Shown here piece by piece: positions 5,763 to 62,766 of a DNA stretch of 64,000 nt. Both the position numbers and the translations under genes were made by a program. Under the pieces are notes generated by a model. That model was not told the DNA's origin. It worked only from the letters and a program-made list of their open reading frames with translations, and did no database searches. The DNA comes from an uncultured virus (IMG/VR IMGVR_UViG_3300025697_003303) (Duplodnaviria > Heunggongvirae > Uroviricota > Caudoviricetes). The stretch lies in IMG/VR virus record IMGVR_UViG_3300025697_003303, one strand, 5' to 3'. Each line of letters opens with the position of its first letter. Positions within the stretch are counted from its first letter, which is position 1.

Positions 5763-6812
5763 TTATCCTGTGTTGTTAGATTCTTTCGTTATTTTCTTAT
5801 TAGCGATGATAGCCCTTCTGAGACATCCTTTAACCACAGAATTTCTAGGATCGCTAGATTTTTTTACATTCCTAATCTCAAAAGGTAATTCGAGGTCTCT
5901 TACTATATTCTCAAAAACTTCGCAAAATCCCTTTGGCATACTTGTGCCGCCAGCAATAACAATGTCAAGAGGAACATCAAATTCGCTCTTTACTTCAATG
6001 AACTTCTTTGAAAACTTCTTTATAACGTTAGCTATCATAGCCTTATAACACGCGGTGAGAGCGAATAAAACCTCATCATCATAGTTATCTTTGCTCAAAT
6101 CAAGCTTAGTTTCCTTCATAGAAGTTACTTGAGATATAGGTTTACCTGTTTCATTCGATACAGTTTCGTCAATCCAGTCACCAGAATTCATACTAGACAT
6201 ACCAACTATAGGCATTCCTTTATACGCAAGAACACAATTTATTCTGCCAGACCCGAACGATATTCCGATTCCTGAAAAATTAAAAATCTTATCGTTTTCT
6301 GTCACTGTAGGATTCTCTGCAAAAATAACTGCCAATCCCTCTTCTATAACAACGACATTATACCCAAGACGAGAAAACATAGCTTCTAATCTAGCTTTAT
6401 GAAAAGTACTTGTTGTAGCTTCATCAACAGCTTCAGATGAAACACAAGTACAGACTACATCATTCGGACCAGTTGCTCTCCCAATAGAAGATTCTATTAA
6501 TTCAGCTAAAATTAGCATTTTTTTATCTTCATTTTTATTTAGAACACCATCTTGAAGAGGTCTTCTCAACTCTACTTGCCCAGGAAACATTTTCGCTACT
6601 CTAAGAGAGTCTTCTCCAATAACAAAATACTTATCTCCATCTTTAACATATTGCCAACTATTCTGTTTAAGAACATCTTCAATATCATCTATATCAGCAA
6701 CCTCTACAAACGCATTTCTAGTCGTTTTGATTACAAGTTTATCTTCATCGCCTTTCGTTGCTGTTTGAAAAAACATTGTGCCGCAATCTACTGAACATAT
6801 CTTATCACTCAT
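5763..6812 (-). CDS. Actin-like ATPase (ParM/MreB/FtsA superfamily)
   Basis: Phosphate-1 VDCGT, connect-1 IEEGLA, phosphate-2 ISFGSG, adenosine IAGGTS and connect-2 VVKG motifs. Confidence 0.85.
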   Translation of the reverse strand: MSDKICSVDCGTMFFQTATKGDEDKLVIKTTRNAFVEVADIDDIEDVLKQNSWQYVKDGDKYFVIGEDSLRVAKMFPGQVELRRPLQDGVLNKNEDKKMLILAELIESSIGRATGPNDVVCTCVSSEAVDEATTSTFHKARLEAMFSRLGYNVVVIEEGLAVIFAENPTVTENDKIFNFSGIGISFGSGRINCVLAYKGMPIVGMSSMNSGDWIDETVSNETGKPISQVTSMKETKLDLSKDNYDDEVLFALTACYKAMIANVIKKFSKKFIEVKSEFDVPLDIVIAGGTSMPKGFCEVFENIVRDLELPFEIRNVKKSSDPRNSVVKGCLRRAIIANKKITKESNNTG

Positions 6813-14087: not shown

Positions 14088-14966
14088 ATGCATAAATTAA
14101 CGCTACTTATTCTCATTTTTGTTTTCTCGGGATGTACTATGCCAATCTTCGTAGAAACAGAACATCTATCTGTTTTTAAAAAAGACCATATCCCCAATAC
14201 AGACGGAGTTTTAGATGTACAAGTCAAAGGCTATAGTTACTATCACCTATGGGTTCCAAAAGAATCTACAACTCGACCAAAAACTAAACTATCTCCTATC
14301 ACCCAAGAACCAATATTTGATTTCTTTTCTGATGGAGAAGGAATAGAAGGAGCAATAAGAAAACTAAAAAAACGACCAGCATCATCATCAGGAAGCTGCT
14401 TCATCGTAGCCAAACAAAACGATTACTACTACGCCGTTACAGCAAGACACGTGATTATGATCGCAGATGCTATAATCCTAATAGATCAACAAAAAGGTGA
14501 AATTGTAACCGTTCTAAATAGAGCCGATATCGCTATTCTTAAATTTAAATCTAATAAGATTTACCCTATCTATAAGTCTTCATTAAATGCAAAAGTTTTA
14601 GACGACGCTTGGCTCGTAGGATATCCAGGAGATGTAATAGGAACTATCAGGAAATTTACCGTAAAAGGGAACGTATGTAATGTCTCAAAAATAGAAATAT
14701 GGTTCTCAGGAGGAGGAGCTAAGGGCATGTCAGGTGGACCTATGCTCAACAATAAAGATGAAGTGATAGGAGTTATTTCCAGATTTATCCCATCCATCCC
14801 AACTTGCGATAATTTTGTAAATAGCGTTCCAGCACGCTTCTTTAAATATGAATTAGAATTGATACTCTCAAAAGAAAGAATCAAAAATATCACAAATAGA
14901 ATAAACATACTAAAAAAGAAAAACTTAAAAGATCAAATAGAAATATTAAAAAAGAACAAATATTAA
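14088..14966 (+). CDS. Trypsin-like serine protease with lipoprotein signal
   Basis: Hydrophobic N-terminus with lipobox-like FSG-C; triad TARHV, ADIAIL, GMSGGP; GGAGG RBS. Confidence 0.85.
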   Translation: MHKLTLLILIFVFSGCTMPIFVETEHLSVFKKDHIPNTDGVLDVQVKGYSYYHLWVPKESTTRPKTKLSPITQEPIFDFFSDGEGIEGAIRKLKKRPASSSGSCFIVAKQNDYYYAVTARHVIMIADAIILIDQQKGEIVTVLNRADIAILKFKSNKIYPIYKSSLNAKVLDDAWLVGYPGDVIGTIRKFTVKGNVCNVSKIEIWFSGGGAKGMSGGPMLNNKDEVIGVISRFIPSIPTCDNFVNSVPARFFKYELELILSKERIKNITNRINILKKKNLKDQIEILKKNKY

Positions 14967-15693: not shown

Positions 15694-15978
15694 CTATCTA
15701 TACAATTTTAAATATTCTACCTTAGTTTTTCCGTAAGCTAACTCGAAATCCTTATCACTCATAGCATTAACTTTATATGCTCTTCGTTTTGCATACCAAT
15801 AATTTTTATAAATAGGACATATCTTTAATGTTGACCAGAATTGCTTCTTAAAATTCCAACCTAAAAAGAAATCCTCTTTAGCCCACCACTCATTATTGTG
15901 ACCAAACCTTTTTGTTCGGAATAAATAATGAACCAATAATTTCCAATGAGTAATTCGATATATAAAACGTTTATTCAT
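15694..15978 (-). CDS. Hypothetical aromatic/basic protein
   Basis: Probable start MNKRFIY overlapping the upstream stop. Confidence 0.45.
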   Translation of the reverse strand: MNKRFIYRITHWKLLVHYLFRTKRFGHNNEWWAKEDFFLGWNFKKQFWSTLKICPIYKNYWYAKRRAYKVNAMSDKDFELAYGKTKVEYLKLYR

Positions 15979-16546
15979 TTTTTTCTGCTTTAACGCTAAC
16001 ATATTGACTCCAATACCAAATAGATTCACACAAATATTCTGCTGTATAGATTCTTGGAGTTCCACCCGGTTTACACAGCATGTTACGTGAGCAAGCTAAA
16101 GGGACCATAGGCTCATTTTCTATAAAAGACGCAATAATACAGACAATCTCCCAATCAGCGTCACAGTAGCGATCTCCTGCGTTTTTAGACAGTTCGTGTG
16201 CTGCATATAAAACAACTTTAGCAAACTTACAAGGCATTGGAGTCCCAGTAGCCTCAACTTTAACAAAACTATGCTCTTTTGGCTGTCTACAAGTCTTTTT
16301 AACGCTTAATTCTTCTACATTATCTATATGAATCGTAGTACTAACGAATTTATCGGGATTTACTGGAACAATACAAACATCATCTATACTATCTGCTCCA
16401 TCACCTTTAAAACGTTTATCCCAATTTGCTATAATTAGATCATGCAACTCAGAGTCTGATCCATTAAAATATGAAAAACCCATACCTTTCTGGTGACGAT
16501 CTTTAGCGAACTTGCTCCATCCAATACTAATGTTTTCTTTATTCAT
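15971..16546 (-). CDS. DUF3228-like protein
   Basis: VVLY..HEL, DADWEIV.I, EPM.P..RN.L...GGT, ESI.YWS pattern. Confidence 0.65.
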   Translation of the reverse strand: MNKENISIGWSKFAKDRHQKGMGFSYFNGSDSELHDLIIANWDKRFKGDGADSIDDVCIVPVNPDKFVSTTIHIDNVEELSVKKTCRQPKEHSFVKVEATGTPMPCKFAKVVLYAAHELSKNAGDRYCDADWEIVCIIASFIENEPMVPLACSRNMLCKPGGTPRIYTAEYLCESIWYWSQYVSVKAEKNE

Positions 16547-16644: not shown

Positions 16645-16923
16645 TTATTTATTTTTTGCGACACAACAAGTAATTATATTATCTGTTACAGATGTCGGAA
16701 ACAACGTATATTTGGGATATTTTTCTAACATTATAGCAACCCAATCAGCTATCTCGTCTTCCGTCAATTCTCTCCCTTTAATGTTGTTAAATTCAAGAAT
16801 AATAGCTTTATAACATTCAACAATAAAGGATCTTGCTTCTTTGAGTATATCTTCCATATCTTTAACTAAATCGACAGAAAAATTTGACCAATTCAAAACA
16901 ACAATATTCGTTGGCTTATCCAT
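16645..16923 (-). CDS. Hypothetical protein
   Basis: 92 aa, coupled to upstream gene. Confidence 0.55.
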   Translation of the reverse strand: MDKPTNIVVLNWSNFSVDLVKDMEDILKEARSFIVECYKAIILEFNNIKGRELTEDEIADWVAIMLEKYPKYTLFPTSVTDNIITCCVAKNK

Positions 16924-19673: not shown

Positions 19674-20072
19674 TCAATATAACCTCGATCTATAATCTAT
19701 GTCATTAAAAGTACGATCTGATTTTTTATCGTAACCGTCCGCTAAACGCTTAATATGAAAATCGCAAATTGGACAATCAGGGTAAGTAGTACCTACACTA
19801 CTCGCTCCCGTACATAATGTATCTATATCACAATCAGGACACTCTCTACATGTTCTCTGATTGTTATCAATGCGAGTCTTTTCATACCATCTCTCTACAA
19901 ACTCTTTAAATTTGTGATTTTTATTTTCTACTCGATCTGCCCATGAGCCAACCGCTCTCATCATCTTAACTTGACCAACTTTAAAACCTTGTTTGTAGCC
20001 TTCTAATTTAGCTTCAGCTATAGCGTCTTTTAACTCGTCTTTTGCTTTTTTATTTTCTGTCAAATCTTTCAT
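19674..20072 (-). CDS. Hypothetical Cys-cluster protein
   Basis: CRECPDC...C...CPIC. Confidence 0.5.
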   Translation of the reverse strand: MKDLTENKKAKDELKDAIAEAKLEGYKQGFKVGQVKMMRAVGSWADRVENKNHKFKEFVERWYEKTRIDNNQRTCRECPDCDIDTLCTGASSVGTTYPDCPICDFHIKRLADGYDKKSDRTFNDIDYRSRLY

Positions 20073-20104
20073 AATTTTATTATACTTTATTTTTATTTCA
20101 CTAC

Positions 20105-20782
20105 TCAGATTTTTCTCAAATCTATAGCTAAGGCTGAATAAGATTTTTCTACTTCTTTCTCATGATCGCACATAGATTGTATGAAATCACTTCTTTCTTT
20201 AATCCCATCTTTGTTATTTAAAATCTGCAACTCGTTTAATCTCGCCCTTTGCCAAAGTAAACCTCTTCCAGTTTGTCCCTTCCAAAAACTATATAATGCA
20301 CAACTTAAAGTAATTTTGCGAAAATTAAAGTCTCTATGCCAATAATTATTATCAACACTAAACAAACAATCACACAACAAATAGAAGGCTACATCAATAT
20401 AAGTCTCTGATATCTCGAAACACCTGTCCCTAACACTCGTATCAAAACCCCATTTTCTCTCACGTTCAGATTTCGCATGTCTACAACATCTTTGAATTTC
20501 ACTTAAATATAAATGATCTAAACAAAATACAGCATCCGATAATTGACTAAAATAAGGATCAGGAAGAGATTTTGTATACCACAATAAATTTTTGTCTTTA
20601 TAGTATGTCTCTCTCCAAATATTATATCTCTCTTCTTTCTTCTTTTCAAAATCAAGCCAATCAATTTTATATAAATTAACTGTCCGTCCTTCTGCCTCCG
20701 TTGGACTCGTAGATTTTATAATTGAACCTGTTTTAAAGAATTTGAGTTTTGGGAAATGAAATGTTCCGTTTGTTCCTAACAT
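20105..20782 (-). CDS. Hypothetical protein
   Basis: 225 aa, GAGG RBS. Confidence 0.6.
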   Translation of the reverse strand: MLGTNGTFHFPKLKFFKTGSIIKSTSPTEAEGRTVNLYKIDWLDFEKKKEERYNIWRETYYKDKNLLWYTKSLPDPYFSQLSDAVFCLDHLYLSEIQRCCRHAKSERERKWGFDTSVRDRCFEISETYIDVAFYLLCDCLFSVDNNYWHRDFNFRKITLSCALYSFWKGQTGRGLLWQRARLNELQILNNKDGIKERSDFIQSMCDHEKEVEKSYSALAIDLRKI

Positions 20783-20839
20783 AATATACCTCGTAATTTA
20801 ATAATCACGACCATTCGTGATATTCCTAAATATGTATCG

Positions 20840-21088
20840 TTATTTTTTATTTTCTCCTATTTTATTTCTTGATTTTCTATGCCTACTATCTTCACTCCAA
20901 CTAATAGAACAAGAACTTGAACGCCAGCCACCAGCATATTGAGAATAAGAACTAATACGAGCAAAACCGAAAGTAGGTCTTACTCGGCTAAAACTTCCAG
21001 ACTCTGACATATAGTGCCACTCAGCAAAACAATAACTGCAATTATCTAATTCCCGATTAGACTGCTTGTATCTTAATATCATCTTCAT
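20840..21088 (-). CDS. Ser/Arg-rich small peptide, MKMIL family
   Basis: MKMILRYKQS...SSSCSISWS; leader shared with paralogs. Confidence 0.65.
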   Translation of the reverse strand: MKMILRYKQSNRELDNCSYCFAEWHYMSESGSFSRVRPTFGFARISSYSQYAGGWRSSSCSISWSEDSRHRKSRNKIGENKK

Positions 21089-21089
21089 C

Positions 21090-21536
21090 TTAAAGTTTAG
21101 ATCCTAAAATATAGCTGCCAAAAGTTTGCTTTTCTGGAAGTGCGTCTGGTCCGAGTATGTCAGGATTAGCATAACAAAATAAACATGAAGTACCCATTTC
21201 AACCTCTAAACCATTTCCATCACAAAATAGTAATGGGATTTTACATTCTCTTCCTAAAAATGTTCCAACCAGAATTACATATACTTCTTCGTTTTTATAT
21301 CCTTTTTCAAAGTAATCTTCGGGAAAAAAATTAGAATAGAAAATATTTGCTTCCTCTTGATTTTCGTGAGGTATCGCTATTCCCATATTAATGCCACTAA
21401 AATGCTCATAATTTTTCATCGTCAGGTGAACAATAGCTAAAGCAAAGGCAGCAGTTATTGTTTGAGATTCCCACTCTCCAGTTTTATAGTTTATGTACTC
21501 AATATGCGTAAATTTAGGCTTTTTTAACTCTTTCAT
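21090..21536 (-). CDS. Hypothetical protein
   Basis: Start reassigned to ATG 21536 after GGAGAATAAG. Confidence 0.6.
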   Translation of the reverse strand: MKELKKPKFTHIEYINYKTGEWESQTITAAFALAIVHLTMKNYEHFSGINMGIAIPHENQEEANIFYSNFFPEDYFEKGYKNEEVYVILVGTFLGRECKIPLLFCDGNGLEVEMGTSCLFCYANPDILGPDALPEKQTFGSYILGSKL

Positions 21537-21537
21537 C

Positions 21538-21747
21538 TTATTCTCCCAATCTATTTCTTGAATCCGGTTCATTTAAACTAAAACAATAAGACTCACTTTC
21601 GCGGAAAGAAAACATAGAACAAGCTGGACCTCTTCCTCTCGTAAAAATAGGAGAACTTCTCGTTCTTGACCAAATATCATTTTTATTCCATAAATAGGAA
21701 GATCTTCTCCTCCCATGAGATAGCGTCGTTTTTAATATCATTTTCAT
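21538..21747 (-). CDS. Ser/Arg-rich small peptide, MKMIL family
   Basis: MKMILKTTLSHGRRRSSYLWNKNDIWSR aligns with the 23089-23286 product. Confidence 0.7.
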   Translation of the reverse strand: MKMILKTTLSHGRRRSSYLWNKNDIWSRTRSSPIFTRGRGPACSMFSFRESESYCFSLNEPDSRNRLGE

Positions 21748-21755
21748 AATTTATT

Positions 21756-21971
21756 CTACCATTCTAGCTTGATGTCATATTTAGACACATCTAATAATAC
21801 TATTCCATCTTCTAGCTCATAGTCGTGAGATGTTCTAGGAATTAGATCATCCATTCCTGTATTTTTATCCATTCCTGTTCGCCATCTATAAAAAATAATT
21901 TCATTTTCTCCAAACGTTATTTCTCCGTTCTGAGTTTTTACTTTCGTTATATGTTTAAAGGATGCTCTCAT
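21756..21971 (-). CDS. Hypothetical protein
   Basis: 71 aa between peptide genes. Confidence 0.5.
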   Translation of the reverse strand: MRASFKHITKVKTQNGEITFGENEIIFYRWRTGMDKNTGMDDLIPRTSHDYELEDGIVLLDVSKYDIKLEW

Positions 21972-21974
21972 AAT

Positions 21975-22181
21975 TTATTGTCGGAAATTACTTTTATCGC
22001 ACGGATATCCCCAACATACGCATCTGGATGATATGGTATACGAAAAAAGAGTAAACTCTTCCGTTTTTCTTTTTATTGTCAGAAGGTATGAATTTGTAGT
22101 GAGAGAGCAGTTTGTATTTTGACTATTCTTGTAGCTACTCATCTTTTGCGGATTAAATTGTCTGCGTTGTAGTATATTAAT
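21975..22181 (-). CDS. Small peptide, M[NK]ILQR/CxCW family, with ATT in place of ATG (non-canonical start or pseudogene)
   Basis: Not in the ORF track; reads (I)NILQRRQFNPQKMSSYK...SSRCVCWGYPCDKSNFRQ, a paralog of 22187-22381. Confidence 0.6.
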   Translation of the reverse strand: MNILQRRQFNPQKMSSYKNSQNTNCSLTTNSYLLTIKRKTEEFTLFSYTISSRCVCWGYPCDKSNFRQ

Positions 22182-22186
22182 ATTAT

Positions 22187-22381
22187 TTATTGTCGGAAAA
22201 TACTTCTATCTCGTGGATTACTCCAGCATAGACATGTAGACGTTGTACCATATCTATGATATGTTTCTGTCTCTATTATATGCCAATATCTATCCGATGA
22301 GCGTGAACGACTAGATCCAACGTGAACTTCTGTACGACTCATGTTGTAGGAGTTAATCAAACTTCGTTGTAATATGTTCAT
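22187..22381 (-). CDS. Small peptide, M[NK]ILQR/CxCW family
   Basis: MNILQRSLINSYNMSR...STCLCWSNPRDRSIFRQ. Confidence 0.7.
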   Translation of the reverse strand: MNILQRSLINSYNMSRTEVHVGSSRSRSSDRYWHIIETETYHRYGTTSTCLCWSNPRDRSIFRQ

Positions 22382-22458
22382 TATTTATTGTCGTCGCATG
22401 AATACTCCCAACATAAACATCTAAATGTTGGAATCAATGCAGTGCCTTTACAAGGGTT
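22381..22458 (-). pseudogene. 3' remnant of a CxCW-family peptide gene
   Basis: Reads NPCKGTALIPTFRCLCWEYSCDDNK then stop; abuts the truncated TnpB. Confidence 0.6.
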
Positions 22459-22973
22459 ACATTACCATATTTCAAACATCAGGAAAGATACTCTTCATAA
22501 AATCACAAGTGAGTTGACGAAAACCAAGTCAACTATTGTGATAGAAGATTTGAATGTATCTGGAATGATGAAGAATCATTGCTTGGCTCAAGCAATTTCA
22601 GATGTTGGATTATTTGAGTTTCGTAGACAATTATCTTATAAAAGTGACTGGTATGGATGTATAATAGTAGTAGCTGATAGGTTCTATCCATCGTCAAAAA
22701 CATGTAATGTTTGCGGTTGCATAAATAACAAACTTACTCTTTCGGATAGAACATGGACTTGTAGTTGTGGAGAAGTACATGACCGTGACTATAATGCAGC
22801 ATGTAATTTAGAAAATCTGGCCACCAGTTCGTTGGACAGTAAAAACGCTTGTGGAGAGATAAGCTCTGGCGACAGTGATGAAATTGTCGTGAAACTTGCC
22901 TCGTAGAAGCAGGAACTAAACAGAAAATCCAAGATTAAACGACTTGTAGATTTTTGTAGGTTTTAGGGAACGG
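22457..22973 (+). mobile_element. tnpB: 5'-truncated IS607-type element remnant: TnpB C-terminus plus right end
   Basis: LHYHISNIRKDTLHK, IVIEDLNVSGM, RFYPSSKTC..CG, W.C.CG..HDRD.NAA.NL; RuvC-I missing; downstream AAGCAGGAA...TTTGTAGGTTTTAGGGAACGG resembles IS607 right ends. Confidence 0.8.
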
Positions 22974-23092
22974 TAGCGATAAGAACTCATTAAAGACCCG
23001 CACGAATAATAACTATAAGTGATAGAAGATCTATTTGAAGAATAACCGTTCATTCTACAATAACTAAAATTTGTCTTCATTATCATCTTCAT
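22916..23092 (-). pseudogene. MKMI-family peptide gene interrupted by the IS607-type right end
   Basis: MKMIMKTNFSYCRMNGYSSNRSSITYSYYSCGSLMSSYRY then reads into the IS end at 22973; GGAGAATAAG precedes the start. Confidence 0.6.
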
Positions 23093-23286
23093 CTTATTCT
23101 CCTAATTATTTCTTGAACCCTTTCTTGAGAACTGAAACAACGACATACTCCTAATATGCCTCTGTTCGCTGATGAAGATATCACGGAACAATCATAGATC
23201 CCTTTTCTTGACCATTTATCATTCCTTCCCCACGAATATGATGATCCTCTTCTTCTGCTTGACGTTATTTTTAATATCATCTTCAT
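23089..23286 (-). CDS. Ser/Arg-rich small peptide, MKMIL family
   Basis: Start reassigned to ATG 23286; MKMILKITSSRRRGSSYSWGRNDKWSR. Confidence 0.7.
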   Translation of the reverse strand: MKMILKITSSRRRGSSYSWGRNDKWSRKGIYDCSVISSSANRGILGVCRCFSSQERVQEIIRRIR

Positions 23287-23287
23287 A

Positions 23288-23488
23288 TTATTTCTCCGAC
23301 AAGTTTTTTGCAAATCCAAAATTTAAACTTGAATATCTAGATCTTGAAATGTCAGTACCTATAGAACATCCATAGCCACTAGAATTTCTCGACCAATAAT
23401 CTAATATCCATGTATTCGAGCCTCCCTCCCATCCCAAAGATGCTCCCAACCTATGCGCCAATAATGTCGTTTTTAATATCATCTTCAT
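23288..23488 (-). CDS. Ser/Gly-rich small peptide, MKMIL family
   Basis: MKMILKTTLL...; AGGAGAATAAG RBS. Confidence 0.7.
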   Translation of the reverse strand: MKMILKTTLLAHRLGASLGWEGGSNTWILDYWSRNSSGYGCSIGTDISRSRYSSLNFGFAKNLSEK

Positions 23489-23497
23489 CTTATTCTC

Positions 23498-23707
23498 CTA
23501 ATTTATGAAACCTTTAAATCCTTGGCAATCGCTGCTGTCAAATGAGCTTTTCCAACACAAACATTCGGATGATGGAACAATTCTATGTGTAATCCCTGAT
23601 CTTGTGTGAAAATTATCATTTGTAGTCACTGAATAGCTATATCTAGCTCCAAAATCAATCCGACTCATTCGGAATGGATTAATAGATCTTCTTTGTAATA
23701 TCTTCAT
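23498..23707 (-). CDS. Small peptide, M[NK]ILQR/CxCW family
   Basis: Start reassigned to ATG 23707; MKILQRRSINPFRMSR...SSECLCWKSS. Confidence 0.7.
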   Translation of the reverse strand: MKILQRRSINPFRMSRIDFGARYSYSVTTNDNFHTRSGITHRIVPSSECLCWKSSFDSSDCQGFKGFIN

Positions 23708-23708
23708 A

Positions 23709-23858
23709 TTATTCTCCTGTTTTGAAATCGCTTTTATCACATGATTTTTCCCAACATAAGCATCTTGATGTTGGAGTAAATCTAGTAGTAGTGAATTCTT
23801 CTGTCACTGCTACTATTATGCTGAAATGTCTGTCTCTAACTAAAGAACAGTTTGTGTA
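23709..23858 (-). pseudogene. 5'-truncated CxCW-family peptide gene
   Basis: YTNCSLVRDRHFSIIVAVTEEFTTTRFTPTSRCLCWEKSCDKSDFKTGE then stop; similarity ends at the upstream region of the TnpB gene. Confidence 0.6.
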
Positions 23859-23939
23859 TCATTAACCTTTACATTTTTTTAGAAAAATATTTAATTTTGT
23901 AGAAGGAGTTTCTAGTTAAATCTGCTAATAGTATTATAT

Positions 23940-25145
23940 ATGATTAGATCTACACAAACTACATTAAAATTCTCCCACAAACAAAAAAGGAGACAACTTA
24001 ACGAGTTTATTAGAGAATATAAAACAGTCACAAGTACTTTTATTGATATGCTTTGGAAAGAAACTGAAATTCTTCAACTTATACCTAAAAAGTTAACTAG
24101 CAAAATAAATACTTGGCTATCTGCAAGAGCTATTCAATGTGCAGGAAAACAAGCTTCAGGAATCGTTAGAGGAGCTAGAAAAAAACAAGAAAAACGACAA
24201 TTCATGATTAACAAATTTAATGAATTAGGTATGTACAAGAAAGCAAGAAAACTACAAAGAATTTACAATGAAAAGAAAGTTTCTAAACCTGATCTAAAAG
24301 AAGTTAACCCAGAACTTGATTCAAGATTTATCAAAATAGATCTAAACAATGAAACGTCTTTTGACGGATGGCTAACTATCTCTTCAATAGGTAATAAACA
24401 AAAATTAATTCTTCCTTTTAAAAAGTCATGGCATTTTAACGAAATGTTATCTCAAGGAACTATTAAAGGTGGTATAAGAATTAATAAAAAAGATGTTACT
24501 TTTACATTTGAAATAGAAGATGTAGAAAAGAAAGAAATAGGTAATATTTTAGGCATAGATATAGGAAAAGTTAATGTAATTTCATGCTCTAATAATCATA
24601 TTAGTAAACCTAATAATGATAGACATGATCTTAATTCTATTCTTAAGATCATGTCAAGGAAGAAGAAAGGTAGTAAGGGTTTTAAACGTTGTGAAGATCA
24701 TAGAACAAATTATATTAACTGGTCAATTAACCAATTAAACCTAGTTAATACTAAACAAGTTAATCTTGAAAATATAAAATACCTTCGAAAAGGTAAAAGA
24801 AATAGCCGTATGTTAAGTCATTGGACTTATACTAACATTTTTGACAAGTTGATTAGTAAATGCGAAGAACAAGGTGTCCTTGTGAAACGCATTTCACCAA
24901 CTTACACGAGTCAAAGATGTAGTAAATGTGGCTGGGTTCGTAAGAGTAACAGGAAGCAGAAAGAGTTTAAGTGTAAGAAATGTTCTTTTGACTGTGACTC
25001 GGATTTAAATGCTTCTGTTAACTTATCTCTTAATCTTAGAGCTATTAGCAAAAAGAAACGATTACTTCAGAAAAATAGAACTGGTTTCTATTGGAATGAG
25101 GTAGGACAGGAGCATATAGTCCCTGTTGCCTTAAAAACTGGTTAA
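23940..25145 (+). mobile_element. tnpB: Full-length solo TnpB (IS200/IS605-type, Cas12f-like RNA-guided nuclease)
   Basis: RuvC-I GIDIG, RuvC-II LENI, zinc finger CSKC..CKKC, RuvC-III DLNAS; no TnpA in window; 3' hairpin GGACAGG-N10-CCCTGTT. Confidence 0.9.
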
Positions 25146-25200
25146 GGAATATTTTTTCCATATAATTATTAACTATAAAATAGTAGAGCCTACTAATATA

Positions 25201-25707
25201 TTGTCAGAAAGGATTTACCCGTTTATGAGAGAAGAATCATATCAAAAATATGCAAAGGGGAAGACAGGGGAAAAACTCTACTCAATATTAAACGAATTAA
25301 TAAAGATTTCTAGAAAACAACAAGAAGCATATGAGTCTGAACGCTCTCAATCTCTATCTTGGGCAAAAGAGTTTTGTACGATTCAACTCAAAGTATCGAG
25401 ACAGTCAGGACACACATACGCTATGATAGAAACCGCTCTCAGCAGATTTTCTGAATCTGTCATAATCTCTACAGCAACCTCAATTAATCATATAAAAAAA
25501 GATATAAAAGAACAAAGAGGATGCCAAAAAGGAAATACCACGCTACTAACTATTAACACACTAAATAAAATAAAAGAACTCAACAATATAGAAGCAATTT
25601 TTGTTGATTGCCACTCTACAATAAATAATGCAAAAGAAGAAGAAATATACGAGACTTGCCTACCTCTAATCACAGACAAACCGTTTTTCTTTATCTTTAT
25701 TCAGTAA
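25201..25707 (+). CDS. Degenerate P-loop protein, paralog A
   Basis: SRQSGHT (Walker A-like with K>H) and AIFVD; the start may be 25225. Confidence 0.55.
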   Translation: MSERIYPFMREESYQKYAKGKTGEKLYSILNELIKISRKQQEAYESERSQSLSWAKEFCTIQLKVSRQSGHTYAMIETALSRFSESVIISTATSINHIKKDIKEQRGCQKGNTTLLTINTLNKIKELNNIEAIFVDCHSTINNAKEEEIYETCLPLITDKPFFFIFIQ

Positions 25708-25767
25708 AAATCCGATAACAAAGTATAAATTAAATCCGACCAGTCAGTCGGGAAAGGAGTAGTTCCT

Positions 25768-26247
25768 ATGCAAAAATACGCTAGAGGTAAAGCAGGTGAA
25801 GAATTATATTCGATTTTAAACAAGCTGATAGACATTTCTGAAAAACAACAAGAAAAGTTCGAAAAAATGCATTTCTGTAGTTCTATATCTTGGGCAAAAG
25901 AATTTTGTACAATTCACCTTCAAACAGCAAGACAAGCAGGACACACATACGCACTGATAGAAACAGCTATCACGAGATTTAATAAATCAATCATTATATC
26001 TCCCAAAATCGCAATGAGCGAACGTATAAAAATAGAGATGAAGAAACAAAGAGAACCACAACAAACAGGAGAAGTGACCTTAGCAACAACTGATTCACTA
26101 GATAAACTAAGAGGTCTAGGAAACATAGATGCTATCTTCGTGGATTGCTCATTCATGTTAAGCAAAAGCAAAAAAGAAGAAATATATAATACATGCTTTT
26201 ATATGAAAAAAGAAGATAAACCGTTCTTCTTCATTTTCGTTCAATAG
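25768..26247 (+). CDS. Degenerate P-loop protein, paralog B
   Basis: ARQAGHT, AIFVD, KPFFFIF; clear tandem duplicate; AAGGAG RBS. Confidence 0.6.
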   Translation: MQKYARGKAGEELYSILNKLIDISEKQQEKFEKMHFCSSISWAKEFCTIHLQTARQAGHTYALIETAITRFNKSIIISPKIAMSERIKIEMKKQREPQQTGEVTLATTDSLDKLRGLGNIDAIFVDCSFMLSKSKKEEIYNTCFYMKKEDKPFFFIFVQ

Positions 26248-30823: not shown

Positions 30824-31519
30824 TTATTTTATGCCTACGTAATCGGATGCAAGGATTAAATCTCCTGGACCCATTACAGTCATTAGATTTTCCCAACTAA
30901 CATTATAAAATCCTGTACTATACTTCTTCAAACGATATTTATACAATCCAACATGAGAGTCAACAATCATAGCCTCTTTTTTGTTGTATCCATTAACAAC
31001 GACTGCATGCTCTTCTGAATCTTCATCTATATCTTTCTTATAACGAAAAAACATCGTCCAATTAAATGTCGCTATCAACGGTTCACCATTATCAATAGAT
31101 TGACGAATATAATCGCCAAAATTATAGTCTATTATTAAACCGTTTTTACGCCTCTTCGTAAGAAATTTGTGCATCAAACGACAATACCATTTATAATCAC
31201 ACTTCTTGTCTTTAGTTTTATTAAAAAATAGTTCCACTAAGTCTTTCTTGCTTTTAGTGGACCACTCATAATCTAAAAAATCTAAATTAGAACTAACTAT
31301 AATTACTTTGTCAAATCCTACAGCATTCAGCAATAACCCCATCTTCTGTGTTTCAAGTCCTTCAAATGGCTGTCCCTTTTTTCTTCTAAATAATCTGTTA
31401 GCTATACTTTTAGTCTTTTTGTAGTCAATATCTTTATTATAAAAATTAGCAAGAGATGCAATAGAAGCTACAGCACAATGCGAAGGTTCTTGAACAAATC
31501 TATTAACATTAATTCTCAC
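30824..31519 (-). CDS. C39-like papain-fold cysteine peptidase
   Basis: Q-x4-C (QEPSHC), EHAVVVNGY and IVDS catalytic motifs. Confidence 0.75.
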   Translation of the reverse strand: MRINVNRFVQEPSHCAVASIASLANFYNKDIDYKKTKSIANRLFRRKKGQPFEGLETQKMGLLLNAVGFDKVIIVSSNLDFLDYEWSTKSKKDLVELFFNKTKDKKCDYKWYCRLMHKFLTKRRKNGLIIDYNFGDYIRQSIDNGEPLIATFNWTMFFRYKKDIDEDSEEHAVVVNGYNKKEAMIVDSHVGLYKYRLKKYSTGFYNVSWENLMTVMGPGDLILASDYVGIK

Positions 31520-38774: not shown

Positions 38775-39921
38775 GAGGGCTTCTCCGCAACGATGTCAAT
38801 ATAGTTGTGTTCAACATAGAACAAGCAGTCATGAGGACATTATCAACGGCTAACTTAATTTCTGCATCGCTATAGTAACAAGACCTTACTTTAAACAAAG
38901 ATTCATTCACAGATAGTAAAATATTGTAAATCTCTTTCCTAGAATATTTATTAATTGATGGCTCATATGAATAATTTCCAACTAAAGAATTTTTAGCCAT
39001 TCCTGCGGTATACTGTGCCTTTTCTTTAGCCTCTTTGTCTTCTGACTTCTCTAATTCATAAACAGTATAAGAACCAGACCCACTTCTTTTTAGTTTTTTT
39101 AATTCCGAAATATTCTGCAACGTTCGATCATCTTCATAACCCAAAATCTTAGATTCTTTCAAAAACAATAAAAGCCTATAACGCCAACGAATACTATTAA
39201 GTACCTGTACTGCCGACTCATACTCAGACTTAACAATATCTCTTGCTTTTTTATAGGTTCTTAAACAACTGATAAAATCTCTTTTATCCATGCAATTAAA
39301 CAAAGTAAACATGAGATATTCTTTATCATGATCTGCTGTTTTGATTACATCTGATTTAGTTATAGCGGGAATATCACCAACAAACGAAAATAATTTCTTC
39401 AAAGACAAGTATATTTTATCTACTTCTACGCCTTTTTTATACACTTCCCCAATAATCGATACTAAAGTCTCAGCACAACCATCTTCATATTTCTTATTAT
39501 TCTGTTTAAAAGCCTTTTCTATATGGTTTACAGCACTACTCTTTTGTAAGTATTTTGGAGACTCATAGACTTTTCCATTTTCATTAACAATCTTAAAAAG
39601 CCATTCGTTTCTCTTTCCTTTGTCAATTCCATTAAAGACAACTACGCAACCTTCTGGAACGCAACGGAGCATCTCTTCAAGCCGTTTTTTCGACTTAACC
39701 CCACCACTACCAAAAGAAGGGATGTGATCAAGAACAACAAGCCTTGTTGTCTCAAAAAGATTAACATTCAAGACTTGTTGTTCTATATATTCTGCAACGA
39801 CATCCTTACTATACAAATGCAACTCATACTTCTTTAAAAAACCCTTTATCTTGTCAAGGATTTCTAGTCGGAAATTAAAACCGCCAGAAAGAATGCATGT
39901 CCTTACTTTTTTATCAGGCAT
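38764..39921 (-). CDS. holA: DNA polymerase III delta subunit-like (clamp loader)
   Basis: NLFETTRLVV motif, LKKL..F..IT..DV, F.L...M pattern; next to dnaN and dnaX; start reassigned to MPDKK. Confidence 0.7.
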   Translation of the reverse strand: MPDKKVRTCILSGGFNFRLEILDKIKGFLKKYELHLYSKDVVAEYIEQQVLNVNLFETTRLVVLDHIPSFGSGGVKSKKRLEEMLRCVPEGCVVVFNGIDKGKRNEWLFKIVNENGKVYESPKYLQKSSAVNHIEKAFKQNNKKYEDGCAETLVSIIGEVYKKGVEVDKIYLSLKKLFSFVGDIPAITKSDVIKTADHDKEYLMFTLFNCMDKRDFISCLRTYKKARDIVKSEYESAVQVLNSIRWRYRLLLFLKESKILGYEDDRTLQNISELKKLKRSGSGSYTVYELEKSEDKEAKEKAQYTAGMAKNSLVGNYSYEPSINKYSRKEIYNILLSVNESLFKVRSCYYSDAEIKLAVDNVLMTACSMLNTTILTSLRRSPHGV

Positions 39922-41197
39922 CTTGTGACAACCTAGCAAAGAATATAGAAAACTTCTCATTCAATCCAGATGACTCATTCTTGCTGCTCAACATAGAACT
40001 ATCCTTAACATCATCAAGAGCATGATATCTTACAACTACAGGCATCTTAGGCTCTGAAGGGATCTCTATTTGTATGTTGTTCTGGTCCGTACCATGCTCC
40101 GCAAGCTCTTTAAGGAAAGCAGAATTACATACGAACTTAATATCATCTTCTTCTAAGACAGAACTCAAAACAGGTACTTTTCTAGAAGCTTTCATTACAC
40201 TATTACTCTTAACGATAAGAGAAGATGCATCCTTACTAACCTCAACACTCGCTCTACTCTGACGATGCTCTTTTTTAAGCTCTTCGCTATATGTAGCTAT
40301 GATACCCTTACCAACATATCCCCATTCTGAGATATTGGTAACAAATCTATTGGCTATGTTAGAATCCAAGAATTTATTTTCATCTGGATAATCTATGTCT
40401 GAATCCAAATTTACAAACAAGATATCATGAGATTTGGTTTTAATAGCAATCTGGTAGTTACTAGATTTACTGCTATTAGTTTTGATATTAAGTTTTTCAT
40501 CGTCTATAGAATTGAAAATCTTCTTTACAGATTCGGTATGATCTTTAGGAAATAATACTGTAAAAGGTTCATCGGAATGGCTATCTACAAAATTCTCTCC
40601 ATCAATATCCAAAACTGAAAATCTTCCGCCAGTTCCAGCAACAAATCTTGCTTTATTTTTACCGAGCCTCAAAGCCCAATGCAAATATTGTGGCATGTTT
40701 TCTTCATAGCCGATTGACCAAAATATCTTATTGACTCCATAGTTATATATAGACCTATCTATGGTTATTTCTCTTTCAAACTTTTTAACTGTCTTCGGCA
40801 TTTCGATATCTTCAGAAGCACAAGGCAATGTCTGATATTCCTCATGATCAGATTTCTTACTGATAAAAAGTTCTTTACCGTTATTGACATTGTTAACTCG
40901 AACTTCGATCTCATCATCTTTTTTAAACGATGAAAGAACATTCTGCAAATCGGCAGAACTAACTGTAACCAGACTCTCTGAAGAGCAAGAATACCCCAAA
41001 TCGCCAGAAGCGAGATCAGAAACGACGGAACGAACAGCGACCTTCCCATTGAAAGAACTGACTACTATTTCGGTCTGAGTTGATTCTAGACTGATTTTAC
41101 CAGCACTTCTAAAATCTTTAACAACCGAATGTGTAGAAACTCCAATCGCAGGTGCGATTCCATTTAACAAACCAGATACTTTACAAGAAAACTTCAT
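39914..41197 (-). CDS. dnaN: DNA polymerase III beta sliding clamp (divergent)
   Basis: MKF start, VAGTGGRF (ATDG.RL equivalent), DYPD, CNSAFL.E (N..YL.D equivalent). Confidence 0.75.
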   Translation of the reverse strand: MKFSCKVSGLLNGIAPAIGVSTHSVVKDFRSAGKISLESTQTEIVVSSFNGKVAVRSVVSDLASGDLGYSCSSESLVTVSSADLQNVLSSFKKDDEIEVRVNNVNNGKELFISKKSDHEEYQTLPCASEDIEMPKTVKKFEREITIDRSIYNYGVNKIFWSIGYEENMPQYLHWALRLGKNKARFVAGTGGRFSVLDIDGENFVDSHSDEPFTVLFPKDHTESVKKIFNSIDDEKLNIKTNSSKSSNYQIAIKTKSHDILFVNLDSDIDYPDENKFLDSNIANRFVTNISEWGYVGKGIIATYSEELKKEHRQSRASVEVSKDASSLIVKSNSVMKASRKVPVLSSVLEEDDIKFVCNSAFLKELAEHGTDQNNIQIEIPSEPKMPVVVRYHALDDVKDSSMLSSKNESSGLNEKFSIFFARLSQDA

Positions 41198-49546: not shown

Positions 49547-50101
49547 TCAATCAATTTTTTGCAAGCCAGTACCAATTTCCTTATATTTACTTCCGCAAAC
49601 CTCGCACTGTAGGAAAGGTCCATTTGCTATTTTGACTCCGCACTCGCATATATATCCTTTATGTCTTGCTGGATTCCCATAAACAATAGTATAATCTGGA
49701 ACGGGTTTTGAAACTACTGAGCCTGCTCCGACTAAAGCATAATAGCCTATAGTTGAACCACAAATTATAGTTGAATTTGCCCCTATTGAGCATCCTTTTT
49801 TTAGAACAGTAGATTTGAATTCTGATTTTCTGTTTACAAACGATCTAGGATTTATGACATTAGTAAAAACAACAGACGGTCCTATAAAAACATCGTCTTC
49901 GACAGAAACGCCCTCATAGATACTAACATTATTCTGTATCTTTACTCCATTTCCTATGCTAACATTTTGTCCTATATTAACATTTTGTCCTATACAACAA
50001 TCTTCTCCTATCTTCGCTCCCTCTTGTATATGAGAAAAGTACCACACCTTTGTTCTTTTGCCTAACTCGACATTATCGTCTATAATAACAAAATCTTTCA
50101 T
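49547..50101 (-). CDS. Hexapeptide-repeat sugar N-acetyltransferase (WbpD-like)
   Basis: VKIQNNVSIYEGV, FIGPSVVFTN..NPRS, GANSTI, GNPA and C-terminal C.CG..C..C. Confidence 0.9.
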   Translation of the reverse strand: MKDFVIIDDNVELGKRTKVWYFSHIQEGAKIGEDCCIGQNVNIGQNVSIGNGVKIQNNVSIYEGVSVEDDVFIGPSVVFTNVINPRSFVNRKSEFKSTVLKKGCSIGANSTIICGSTIGYYALVGAGSVVSKPVPDYTIVYGNPARHKGYICECGVKIANGPFLQCEVCGSKYKEIGTGLQKID

Positions 50102-50108
50102 AAGTTCC

Positions 50109-51458
50109 TTATTTATTGGTAGTAGCTCCTGGTATTTTGAGCCAATCGATATCTTTTCTAATCCTCAAATTAATTTCCCAAGCTTTTTTCATTAAATCGA
50201 AATCATAATCAAGTTCATCAGCAGCATAGTTGATCATAGCGTTAATATCTTTTGGAAAGCAGTTATGAGTGACAATCCCTGTCTTTTGCTCTATCCAAAA
50301 CAAATCGTCTTTTTCAGAATCACTTGTCAATTCCAAATTATATACTTTCCCCTTATATCGTCTTTTTGTAATTTTATTTATTTGCATAGTTACATCATTT
50401 ATAATAAAAAACAAATCTGTTTCTTTTATTTTTTTTGCTTTAACAATTATTTTTTTACTATCGCGTAAGACTGGCATCAGGTGTTCTAGTGTACAACTGA
50501 ATTCTCCACTATTAGTTTCAAAAACAATTATTTCTTCATCAATTTCTCTTTCAGTTACGACTTTAATTTCTTTCCATTCTGCGTTTTCTAAATTAGCATC
50601 ACACGATTCTATAGAATATATGTTTGAATAACCGTTTCCCTTATCTTCTATAAACTTACTCAAATTTTCAATAGATACTTCTTCTTCATAAGATTCGGGT
50701 TGATCGTACTCATCAATAATCATAGTTTGTATTTTTGCCTTTGCGTCTGGGAGAACGCACTTCCCGCCCCAACCTCGATCTCCATCTGGACCAGGAACCT
50801 TACCGTGACTGTTACCCATTCTCGGATCTCCATGAAAAATTTCAGACAAAGTATCCCAAGAATCAGTACTGCCAGATGATTGGTGTATATCGTACATTTG
50901 ATTCATAAACGTAACTTTAAGAGCCAAATAACAATTCTCCATATACTTTAAAACGCCAGAAGAAATTAGATCACATTTAAAAAATTTAGTAGCTTTACAA
51001 ATACTATACTCTTTAAATAGGTCTAAAACGCTCTGTGCGTCTTCTTCCCTATTACTGCCGACTACAATCATAGGCTCTTCAATAAAAGCTTCCAGCGGGT
51101 TAGCATCAATTAAATACTCAGGACTCATACAAAGACGAAGATCAGAATATTTCTTAGCCCAATAAGCAAGATGAGATGGGATTACAGTGCTTTTACTAAT
51201 TACCACACCATTATAATTAAATGAAGCTATTAAATCCATGACAGAATCAATAATAGTTGTATCAATTTTTCCATTATCTTTCATATTCATCGGAGTAGGA
51301 ACGCCAACAAATATAAAATCAGCTTCTTTAGTCATCTGTTCCATACTAACAGACATATTTTTATAAGCTGGATCTAAAATCAATATCTCTGCGCTATTTT
51401 TAAAGCCATACTCGATAGCTTTGCCAACTACGCCGTAACCAACTATCCCTATCTTCAT
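50109..51458 (-). CDS. UDP-glucose/GDP-mannose dehydrogenase-family protein with intein
   Basis: GYGVVG, VPTP, KST, PEYL, KY..N..LA.K..F.N, D.RMG.SH; GWGGK|CFPKD split by an insertion. Confidence 0.9.
   Translation of the reverse strand: MKIGIVGYGVVGKAIEYGFKNSAEILILDPAYKNMSVSMEQMTKEADFIFVGVPTPMNMKDNGKIDTTIIDSVMDLIASFNYNGVVISKSTVIPSHLAYWAKKYSDLRLCMSPEYLIDANPLEAFIEEPMIVVGSNREEDAQSVLDLFKEYSICKATKFFKCDLISSGVLKYMENCYLALKVTFMNQMYDIHQSSGSTDSWDTLSEIFHGDPRMGNSHGKVPGPDGDRGWGGKCVLPDAKAKIQTMIIDEYDQPESYEEEVSIENLSKFIEDKGNGYSNIYSIESCDANLENAEWKEIKVVTEREIDEEIIVFETNSGEFSCTLEHLMPVLRDSKKIIVKAKKIKETDLFFIINDVTMQINKITKRRYKGKVYNLELTSDSEKDDLFWIEQKTGIVTHNCFPKDINAMINYAADELDYDFDLMKKAWEINLRIRKDIDWLKIPGATTNK
50262..50759 (-). 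other. Mini-intein (166 aa)
   Basis: Begins CVLPDA, block B CTLEH, block F VYNLE, ends THN followed by Cys+1. Confidence 0.9.
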
Positions 51459-51545
51459 AATAATCTCCTAATTTCTCTTAATATATTATTTCTTGCAAAA
51501 AACAGGCTACCGTCACCATTTAAAAAGATGTCTTTCCAAACTTTT

Positions 51546-51914
51546 TTATTTGATTATGCCATACGCCCCATTCTTCTCATACTCTCTAACCATACGTATC
51601 GTATTGATCGGGCTTCCTCCCCCAGCATCTCCATCAACAAGAATTGGAATAGAAATCCTATCACTTATTTTGTTGCAGAATTCAGAATAGTCTGAAACAG
51701 TAAGGATATCAGCGTCTGGCAATCTACATGTCGCATGAGATTCAAAAGAAGACAACCAAATACCTTCGAACCCAGCCTCTTCTATAATAGTAGCTGCTAA
51801 TGCGTTACAAGCCCCACATAATCTAACCATCTTACCAGTTTTAAACAAAGACTTAAAATCTGTTCTATTAACGAAAGTCCTATTGCCTTGATCTATTATT
51901 AAACGTTTATCCAC
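51546..51914 (-). pseudogene. Phosphoenolpyruvate mutase/isocitrate lyase family, N-terminal fragment
   Basis: GA.NAL.A..IEEAGF.GIW.SS, LPDA, IPILVD.D.G.G..IN..R.V; stops before IED..PK..S. Confidence 0.8.
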
Positions 51915-51946
51915 TATTATCTCCTAACTTAATATCGACAAATGAT

Positions 51947-52801
51947 TTAATTATCTCCTTTTTCCAGCATAATGGATCTAACTATTCTATCACTGATTTT
52001 ATCAGTACCTGGTACGCATTGATTATGTTGTTTAGAACAAAAGTGAATAGCATCGTTCGCATCTACATTTTTAAATATACCACGCTTAAACTTACCGCCA
52101 GTATCCATTATTTTAAAAGGTAAATATCCCCTCTCTTTAAATAAGTCTGGATTTGGGACAGCGGCAGATACAACATATTTGAATTTAAAACCTATATCGA
52201 CAAGATATCTCAATATGTTTTCAAAATTTCTTTCCTTACTGTAAGTATTTGGATGAACTTCAAGTAAGATTTTACATTTATTTATGTTTTCTAATGTTTT
52301 TCTAGCCCCATCAATTACCTCTATCTCGTAACCTTCAATATCCATCTTAATAAAATTTGGTTTCAAATTTAAACTATCTATCGTTTTTGTCTTGACTTGA
52401 TGTTTTTTGCATCTATCTTTTGGTTTTAATAAAGATGATTGATTAGGTTTCTTGGTATAATACATTTTTTTTTCACCTTTAAAATTTGACAAAGCAAAAT
52501 TATGAATTTCTACTTTTTTAGAATACCCGTTAATATCAATATTTTTTTTTAAGATTTTTCTACTAGTTTTATGTGGTTCGATAGCAATTATTTTTGAAAC
52601 ACTTTTTGAATTACACATAATTAATGTAGCATAACCTATATTTGCTCCCACCTCTAAAGCCAGACCTTCTGATTCATTCTTTAATAGCCATGTAAAACAA
52701 GGTTCCCAAAACCCTATATGTATTAAGTTGCCAGATATACCCACACCGGAACGATCTAGATACATCAAATTCCCATTAATTTTCTTTTTTACTAATTTCA
52801 T
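51947..52801 (-). CDS. FkbM-family methyltransferase
   Basis: EVGANIG, AIEP, ALS and IKMDIEGYE. Confidence 0.9.
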   Translation of the reverse strand: MKLVKKKINGNLMYLDRSGVGISGNLIHIGFWEPCFTWLLKNESEGLALEVGANIGYATLIMCNSKSVSKIIAIEPHKTSRKILKKNIDINGYSKKVEIHNFALSNFKGEKKMYYTKKPNQSSLLKPKDRCKKHQVKTKTIDSLNLKPNFIKMDIEGYEIEVIDGARKTLENINKCKILLEVHPNTYSKERNFENILRYLVDIGFKFKYVVSAAVPNPDLFKERGYLPFKIMDTGGKFKRGIFKNVDANDAIHFCSKQHNQCVPGTDKISDRIVRSIMLEKGDN

Positions 52802-53429: not shown

Positions 53430-53430
53430 A

Positions 53431-54057: not shown

Positions 54058-54064
54058 TTTAATG

Positions 54065-54892: not shown

Positions 54893-54893
54893 T

Positions 54894-57682: not shown

Positions 57683-57683
57683 A

Positions 57684-58478: not shown

Positions 58479-58480
58479 TC

Positions 58481-60126: not shown

Positions 60127-60167
60127 TTCTTTCTGTGACCTACTATACTTTCGATATCAATCTAAGA

Positions 60168-60791: not shown

Positions 60792-60798
60792 GATGTCC

Positions 60799-62714: not shown

Positions 62715-62736
62715 TAATTTTTCCTTTTATTCAAGA

Positions 62737-62762: not shown

Positions 62763-62766
62763 ACTA

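Follow-up and report, generated by a model that had tools for sequence, protein, structure and literature searches.

A coupled operon of nine related microprotein genes, rearranged at their junctions, in an uncultured tailed phage

Organisation of the array

The DNA examined here is a stretch of 64,000 nucleotides (the window) from the uncultured virus IMGVR_UViG_3300025697_003303 (Caudoviricetes). It is a section of a large tailed phage with a GC content of 29-39%, and nearly every gene lies on the minus strand. An array of small genes is found on this strand at positions 20840-23858. In the order of transcription, it is composed of C4, C1, a, b, c, a TnpB fragment in plus orientation, C5, C2, C3, X71, d, g160 and e (Table 1). 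The open reading frames (ORFs) of the array have about 60-80 codons, with near-identical starts and strongly divergent bodies. An original prediction, made from the sequence alone, had described small coupled ORFs in this segment, and all of them are present on the minus strand at the coordinates given.

The number of family genes in this strain is nine and not about ten as first counted, since c and the C5 remnant are one gene. Six copies are intact and three are damaged: one is split by the TnpB fragment (c::C5), one is truncated by a TnpB island (C4) and one has lost its start codon by a change from ATG to ATT (C3, whose relative P0003 has an intact ATG). The remnants noticed at 22381 and 23709 are indeed remnants; however, the one at 22381 is the other half of c rather than a separate copy, and the one at 23709 is a gene cut by the TnpB island. 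The homology of C4 stops at about 23858, beside the upstream region of the TnpB gene, and its 5' part is replaced by the plus-strand island. Ten consecutive junctions are separated by -4 to +9 nucleotides from stop to next start, and in several of them the motif GGAG is included within the final codons of the preceding gene. The segment 20840-23858 is one translationally coupled operon containing the nine family genes, X71 and g160, and it sits in an accessory, fast-rearranging region of the phage.

DNA of relatives was obtained by a scan of metagenomes, which gave one diverged relative (L004) and two near-identical strains (L005 and L006). The orthologs with P numbers (P0002, P0003, P0004 and others) are proteins from other contigs found by a word-indexed search. 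Concerning the two ordinary genes of the operon, only two clusters of X71 are known, and X71 stands next to family genes both in the window and in L004. A sequence search of the PDB gave no structure match for X71, and g160 has no match in Pfam, PHROG or PADLOC.

Table 1. Features of the array, of the rest of the window and of the relative L004 (positions refer to the window unless L004 is named).
Feature	Position	Strand	Description
C4 remnant	23709..23858	(-)	3' two-thirds of a CxCW-type gene; aligns with C3 from "..NTNCSL" to the CxCW tail
C1	23498..23707	(-)	intact, 69 amino acids, MKILQR..CLCW; P0002 is 99% identical; copies in L005 and L006
a	23288..23488	(-)	intact, 66 amino acids, MKMILK leader, without C[W/F] motif; identical P0007 on 16 contigs
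b	23089..23286	(-)	intact, 65 amino acids; stop overlaps the start of c (ATGA); ortholog P0008 in L004
c (5' half of c::C5)	22973..23092	(-)	codons 1-40 of the split gene
C5 remnant	22381..22454	(-)	3' half of c::C5, last 24 codons with CLCW; first listed as 22381-22457
C2	22187..22381	(-)	intact, 64 amino acids
C3	21975..22181	(-)	first codon ATT, not ATG; listed ORF begins at internal ATG 22142
X71	21756..21971	(-)	ordinary-looking acidic gene of 71 amino acids inside the array, isoelectric point 5.2
d	21538..21747	(-)	intact, 69 amino acids; ortholog P0004
g160	21090..21536	(-)	ordinary acidic gene in the operon; likely start ATG 21536, after GGAGAATAAG
e	20840..21088	(-)	intact, 82 amino acids, last gene of the array; ortholog P0009
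TnpB fragment	22455..22971	(+)	5'-truncated IS605-type insertion of 517 nucleotides: C-terminal part of about 150 amino acids and about 65 nucleotides past the stop
Full-length TnpB	23940..25145	(+)	IS605-type, 401 amino acids; PF07282, E = 6.9e-18; opens a (+) island up to 26247
Volactin	5763-6812	(-)	phage-encoded actin-like protein; full-length Pfam match, E = 3e-65
Sliding-clamp-type processivity factor	39914-41197		PHROGs match
Tail tube protein	window		Pfam match
PhoH	window		Pfam match
DnaJ	window		Pfam match
Clamp loader	window		Pfam match
Deoxynucleoside monophosphate (dNMP) kinase	window		Pfam match
Topoisomerase IA	window		Pfam match
CCA-adding/poly(A)-polymerase-like enzyme	window		Pfam match
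LAGLIDADG-type homing endonuclease	L004 3043-3786	(+)	PF03161, E = 9e-28
LAGLIDADG-type homing endonuclease	L004 8233-9087	(-)	judged by eye from motifs

Relatedness and coding status of the genes

The genes had been divided into two families, one with an MKMI leader and the other with a CxCW motif. When both types are aligned together, they have in common the start M-[KN]-(M)-I-L-x-[KR], and most of the members display the C-terminal motif x-C-[W/F] (CRCF in b, SYCF in d and SYCW in a member from L004). At the DNA level, the leader of the CxCW type lacks the third codon of the MKMI leader and otherwise equals it, and the protein P0011 combines an MKMI leader with a CLCW tail. Judged from these homologous leaders and tails, the two types constitute a single superfamily. 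The codon pattern of CxCW is detected 5 times in the 64 kb, every time in the array (0.22 expected). With up to 3 mismatches, the Shine-Dalgarno (SD) sequence together with the leader that follows it (GGAGAATAAGATGAARATGATA) has 4 occurrences (0.03 expected), which are likewise confined to the array region, and the MKMI leader (up to 3 mismatches) gives 10 matches against 2.08 expected, the best five of which are genes of the array. The first 18 nucleotides of the paralogs are 78-100% identical, whereas the bodies share 42-58% identity, to be compared with 47-51% (standard deviation 0.02-0.03) in shuffled sequences. The leaders are thus conserved in DNA and the bodies divergent, as had been noticed. 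The conserved N-terminus comprises 6 residues in the MKMI type and about 16 in the CxCW type, without a conserved Gly-Gly or similar site.

The family proteins have 58-84 amino acids and are basic and hydrophilic. In comparison with the long ORFs of the phage, they are enriched in Cys (2.95 times), Arg (2.44 times), Trp (2.34 times) and Ser (2.25 times), and they are poor in Ala, Val, Asp and Glu. Their contents of Ser, Thr and Cys are of 16.1%, 5.1% and 3.9%, respectively, as in the Ser/Thr/Cys-rich core of precursors of ribosomally synthesized and post-translationally modified peptides (RiPPs). The isoelectric point is comprised between 9.0 and 11.3 in 14 of the 15 members, whereas the long ORFs of the phage have a median of 5.8. 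Decoys had been envisaged as one role of the proteins; since they are basic, decoys in the sense of DNA mimics are unlikely.

None of the ten small ORFs matched a family of Pfam or PHROG, none of ten proteins was recognized by PADLOC, and the profile of the whole family found no sequence match in the PDB. A profile search against 1.84 billion representative sequences gave 14 hits at E ≤ 0.001, of which 11 belong to the same lineage and three are long tandem-repeat proteins. As far as these searches reach, the family is restricted to this lineage and has no known relative by sequence or profile; it is previously undescribed. Two AlphaFold2 models, built from alignments of 8-9 sequences, have a mean predicted local distance difference test (pLDDT) of 45 and 48. 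The Atlas model of e has a pLDDT of 0.31, and the Atlas gave no usable match. According to these models, the family proteins are probably disordered and without a stable fold. A similarity was also noticed between the body of a (23348-23425, minus strand) and a protein of 112 amino acids from L004 (9242-9580), with the motif W..WS..SG[YF]GCSI and 12 identical residues out of 26. The relatives of the latter lie at 15694-16546 in the window, and the similarity was too weak to be used.

The reading frames are open well beyond chance. After dinucleotide shuffling, a body stays open with a probability of 0.00025-0.016 per unit (eight family units and X71), and the remaining five frames contain 2-12 stops per unit. 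The gene b and its ortholog P0008 in L004 are 80% identical in DNA, the neighbouring genes being 74-88% identical. In a core of 40 codons, we observe 10 synonymous and 8 nonsynonymous substitutions, that is, a ratio of nonsynonymous to synonymous rates (dN/dS) of 0.17 (binomial P = 0.002). For the whole of b the ratio is 0.20-0.31, similar to that of the neighbour g105 (0.28). The same alignment read in the two other sense frames gives 4.2 and 0.42-0.48; one antisense frame also has a low value (0.11), yet it is closed by stops. X71 shows 90% amino-acid identity with its counterpart in L004 and a dN/dS of 0.075. In C2, a haplotype found on contigs of two metagenome runs carries 8 substitutions in 45 nucleotides; five are synonymous and three are nonsynonymous, altering two residues, and one of the changes (AGA to CGG) keeps the Arg. 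Length and frame are kept between d and P0004 (11 of 69 residues differ, 84% identity) and between e and P0009 (about 87% identity). Altogether the orthologs are 77-87% identical, with cores free of insertions and deletions.

Because the frames are open beyond chance and because purifying selection is detected in b and C2, the units of the array are real genes and neither repeats nor RNA, and these comparisons indicate that the amino-acid sequences of the family are under purifying selection. The supposition of a real small-protein family is in this way borne out. The description of the proteins as hypervariable or diversifying is not supported at the level of single genes, since the orthologs are conserved; it is the gene content and the gene order that change.

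The search for another coding frame was also negative. The GC content is highest at the second codon position, which hinted at a different or antisense frame. This was rejected, since the other frames carry stops and since a tblastn search of the array for an overlapping ancestral gene, with 176 ORFs of the window, L004 and L006 as queries, gave 32 hits that all fall on the annotated frames. By these sequence measures, the array looks random-like and yet behaves as selected coding sequence. A structured RNA or a tRNA array was likewise rejected: no match at the gathering threshold of Rfam and no tRNA were found in the 64 kb, and the folding z-scores of nine units on both strands range from -2.0 to +1.6 with no consistent signal. 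In PMC6195259, overprinted or de novo proteins of viruses are described as enriched in Arg and Ser, predicted to be disordered and atypical of their genome in codon usage. The array proteins resemble them in these three respects. Contrary to overprinted proteins, they have their other five frames closed, with no ancestral overlapping frame at present. The known cases are moreover single genes in eukaryotic viruses, whereas the array is a tandem family.

Junction modules and TnpB insertions

The copy number, the order and the neighbours of the family genes vary from one relative to another, and the breakpoints lie at the leaders. L006 is homologous to the window from 6 nucleotides ahead of the ATG of C1 onwards, and in L006 the leader of C1 is retained without its SD sequence. 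In the window, X71 is located between C3 and d, whereas L004 has only three members, all downstream of X71; the gene that comes after X71 is d in the former and one of CxCW type in the latter. Codon choice in the leader is frozen at synonymous sites: Ile is encoded by ATA in 6 of 6 cases (usage 0.43), Leu by TTA in 5 of 5 (0.31) and Lys by AAG in 6 of 7 (0.34). Beyond C[W/F], b and P0008 have the same tail in DNA but translate it in different frames. Recombination at shared ends, as first proposed, is supported by the position of the breakpoints, by the frozen leader sites and by the leader-tail joint of P0011.

These observations suggest a junction module, made of the last codons of one gene, the SD sequence and the first six codons of the next gene, that would be constrained as nucleic acid. 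It might act, on one hand, as a strong initiation site and, on the other hand, as a recombination handle for the duplication, exchange and loss of cassettes. A comparable organisation is found in the PeSL (promoter-early stem-loop) cassettes of the hyperplastic regions of T4-type phages: according to PMC2839356, non-essential ORFans are shuffled there by recombination between regulatory modules, which are short, conserved and placed where genes meet. Similarly, when the window, L006 and L004 are compared, the rearrangement breakpoints coincide with the junction modules. The PeSL element differs by being a promoter with a terminator, whereas the module of the array is a translation-initiation junction in a coupled operon and its cassettes are paralogs. 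Promoter-like sites number 42 against 34.8 +/- 6.0 expected, with no excess of promoters or terminators. Integron gene cassettes were discarded as a model, the unit boundaries having no inverted repeats and the scanned ORFs no integrase family.

Two TnpB insertions interrupt the array. As a listed ORF, c extends from 22916 to 23092 and continues for 18 codons into the inserted element. The protein P0011 (64 amino acids) is made up of residues 1-40 of c and, after them, the 24 residues with which the C5 remnant ends, and L006 carries a gene of the P0011 type unbroken, without the insertion of 517 nucleotides. Since P0011 joins both parts and L006 encodes an uninterrupted copy, c and C5 are the halves of one gene. 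The joint of the empty site (22454 to 22972) was detected on contigs in two of the four metagenome DNA runs examined. In run X1, the empty site has a depth of 19.1 and the inserted form one of 10.6, and the split and intact alleles coexist. The existence of an allele free of insertion identifies the TnpB fragment as an intruder into a family gene. The ORF of the fragment (22388-22906) matches PF07282 (E = 8.3e-21) and PF01385 (E = 6.4e-8), and the ends of the insertion are ambiguous by 3 nucleotides, GGT being repeated at both. A canonical IS605 insertion was not retained as explanation: the left end is missing and the junction is 3-6 nucleotides from TTAC. A deletion joint from 21695 to 23077, observed on one contig (depth 3, with a side of 22 nucleotides), was not counted; it more likely derives from a relative with a P0004-like gene.

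By their Pfam matches, both copies belong to the IS200/IS605-family TnpB proteins, marked by RuvC-like/OrfB_IS605 and Cas12f1-like TNB zinc-ribbon domains, and they are only distantly alike (31% identity over 51 amino acids). The island at 23860-26247 (plus strand) comprises the full-length TnpB gene and two paralogous phrog_2586 genes, and the segment upstream of C1 is strain-variable. L006 lacks this TnpB gene and C4; its positions 1-1089 hold instead a gene of 307 amino acids with a DUF4238 domain (E = 3e-7). In metagenomes, other copies of the left end have different flanks. The fragment is marked as mobile by its empty site, and the full-length copy by these other flanks and by its absence from L006.

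The octamer CCTTTACA is located at 22445-22452 and at 23866-23873 on the plus strand, which is the tnpB strand, at or within 3 nucleotides of both left junctions of TnpB. It has five copies in the window against 2.6 expected. Metagenome copies of the full-length element also read ..CCTTTACAT(C) ahead of the shared part. The octamer may contain a TTAC-type target or target-adjacent motif, or the start of the left end. A weak match to RAGATH-18 was detected at 22848-22915 (plus strand), at the 3' end of the TnpB fragment (22.8 bits for a gathering threshold of 44.9, E = 0.75); it could be what remains of a TnpB guide-RNA scaffold.

Possible roles and genomic setting

The family is best read as a set of accessory microproteins that evolve by birth and death and are shuffled at a conserved junction module. 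That these are real, selected genes shuffled at their junctions is very likely. As to their biochemical role, we advance only tentatively that they are polycationic, largely disordered proteins which bind nucleic acid or else acidic proteins of the host. Such binders would serve as accessory factors in the takeover of the host or in counter-defence, each copy being individually dispensable; this role is suggested because of the charge of the proteins, their individual dispensability and their place in a variable region where mobile elements abound. The statement taken as a whole, from the coupled operon and the superfamily of nine members to the shuffling at junctions and the inferred binder role, appears to us probable on balance.

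Several points weigh against this interpretation. The proposed binding role is without a relative in Pfam, PHROG, PADLOC, the PDB or the Atlas, and no RNA run that would attest the expression of the frames is present among the 24 listed public runs matching the stretch. The evidence for selection consists of one orthologous DNA pair (18-30 substitutions) and one haplotype (8 substitutions). The codon log-likelihood of the units lies between -0.21 and +0.11 bits per codon, whereas the long genes of the phage have 0.26 +/- 0.08 (302 windows, 5th percentile 0.12), and the maximum of GC at the second codon position is typical of shifted frames. C2 has a language-model recognition score of 1375, barely that of a natural protein, on a scale where 91 of 100 proteins of known families reach 2300. 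The confidence of AlphaFold2 may be low merely because the alignments hold so few sequences, and three damaged copies out of nine could equally mean that the family is decaying.

The same features would fit ORFs that are translated mainly to pass ribosomes to X71, g160 and g225, or young and nearly neutral de novo genes, whose peptides have little or no function. The random-like composition, the poor codon adaptation with GC higher at the second than at the first position, the low language-model recognition, bodies no more alike than shuffled sequences, and the three damaged copies, one of them polymorphic in the population, are all expected under this explanation. We nevertheless consider it quite unlikely, as purifying selection acts on the amino acids of b and C2 in exactly the frame of the array, the orthologs remain 77-87% identical without insertion or deletion in their cores, and L004 has retained three members despite a different arrangement of its ordinary genes. 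An origin as non-coding repeats, either structured RNAs or IS200/IS605 relics (PATE-like) tied to both TnpB genes, is hardly credible. It would account for the two insertions, for the octamer at both left junctions and for the RAGATH-18 match; however, this match is inside the inserted element and outside the family units, and the allele without insertion reveals the fragment as an intruder. The units have no inverted-repeat ends, no consistent RNA folding and no Rfam family at the gathering threshold, and their frames are open far beyond chance with codon-periodic substitutions.

The closest functional analogy is provided by the internal proteins of T4, packaged in the virion and ejected with the DNA. 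In such a case, the leader would be a capsid-targeting signal and the diverse basic bodies would accompany the DNA and counteract different host nucleases. PMC3012670 describes IPI, IPII, IPIII and their polymorphic relatives in T-even phages as small basic proteins encoded side by side, with diverse bodies and a short capsid-targeting leader, individually dispensable and variable between related phages. The array likewise contains small, basic, tandem genes with a short conserved N-terminal leader, diverse bodies and copies that are individually dispensable. It differs by the absence of any sequence or profile similarity, including a PHROG or Pfam link to internal proteins. The prohead protease cleaves at the motif [LI]-x-E, which ends a targeting peptide of about 10 residues, whereas the leader of the array has only 6 residues and none of the eight members in the window has this motif in the first 20. 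The leader is also conserved at synonymous sites, which points to a constraint on DNA or RNA rather than to a peptide signal, C1 of L006 keeps it without an SD sequence, and no head genes adjoin the array. We therefore regard packaged internal proteins as distinctly unlikely. RiPP-like precursors, as evoked in the original prediction, appear very improbable. They would have a conserved leader (and follower), a variable Ser/Cys-rich core and an enzyme encoded elsewhere in the genome of more than 129 kb or in the host. Prochlorosins, a multi-copy family of RiPP precursors, are indeed encoded by many small paralogs with a conserved leader and a variable remainder, and the array similarly consists of small multi-copy genes, conserved at their ends and variable in a middle part rich in Ser and Cys; a Peptidase_C39-like protein is encoded at 30824-31519 (minus strand, Pfam, E = 7.8e-10). 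On the other side, no YcaO, LanM/LanC, radical-SAM or other maturase was detected with Pfam (E ≤ 1e-4 / 0.01) among the 87 ORFs of the window that were scanned. RiPP leaders are usually longer than the 6-16 residues conserved here, no Gly-Gly site is conserved, the products of 58-84 amino acids are basic throughout, and the conserved tail past C[W/F], being DNA read in different frames, is no follower peptide.

Beyond the accessory microproteins described above, an extended hypothesis, unlikely in our estimate, is that the phage maintains a "gene nursery". A portable module (tail, SD sequence and ATGAAGATGATATTA) would capture or duplicate random-like stretches, selection would keep the useful polycationic disordered binders, and X71 might be their partner or chaperone. 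If so, the array would be part of a broad and undescribed class of phage microprotein effectors. Phage genes of such size and composition are routinely lost by gene callers, and the comparisons made for the array give evidence of frames that are kept by selection even though codon statistics, structure prediction and language model do not see them as protein-like. Should the products turn out to be polycationic effectors with a function, nine natural variants are available at the locus, together with a naturally occurring knock-out allele (the copy split by TnpB) and a defined junction module, with which the creation, shuffling and discarding of microprotein genes by a phage could be studied. 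If they are functionless, it offers a clean case of ORFs that are translated and look selected, and a caution about dN/dS values derived from few substitutions.

Concerning the setting of the array, no similar phage was found in GenBank, where 50 records match just about 4% of a query of 6 kb (the TnpB segment) with 66-68% identity. In IMG/VR, the leader pattern led to three unrelated loci, and the patterns of g160 and X71 gave 24 and 7 matches, respectively, none of which was confirmed. The public DNA runs that contain the stretch are labelled as salt-lake metagenomes, and 13 of the 24 listed runs contain at least half of the sampled words.

A block of sugar and polysaccharide genes occupies positions 49547-63926 on the minus strand. 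It includes a UDP-glucose dehydrogenase-like protein, a fragment of phosphoenolpyruvate mutase, a hexapeptide transferase, several FkbM methyltransferases and glycosyltransferases (Pfam). The C39-like protein and a trypsin-like peptidase at 14088-14966 (plus strand, Pfam, E = 5.5e-11) are the sole peptidases near the array, and no link of either with the microproteins could be shown. L006 displays no difference from the window over 19948-22451 and three over 22969-23713. By comparison, a gene of 92 amino acids at 16645-16923 (minus strand) has 24 substitutions relative to L006, where it contains a stop, and more are found downstream; such a pattern suggests that a patch was acquired by recombination with a diverged relative. 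Finally, the synteny of L004 with the window is broken by genes for LAGLIDADG-type homing endonucleases (Table 1).

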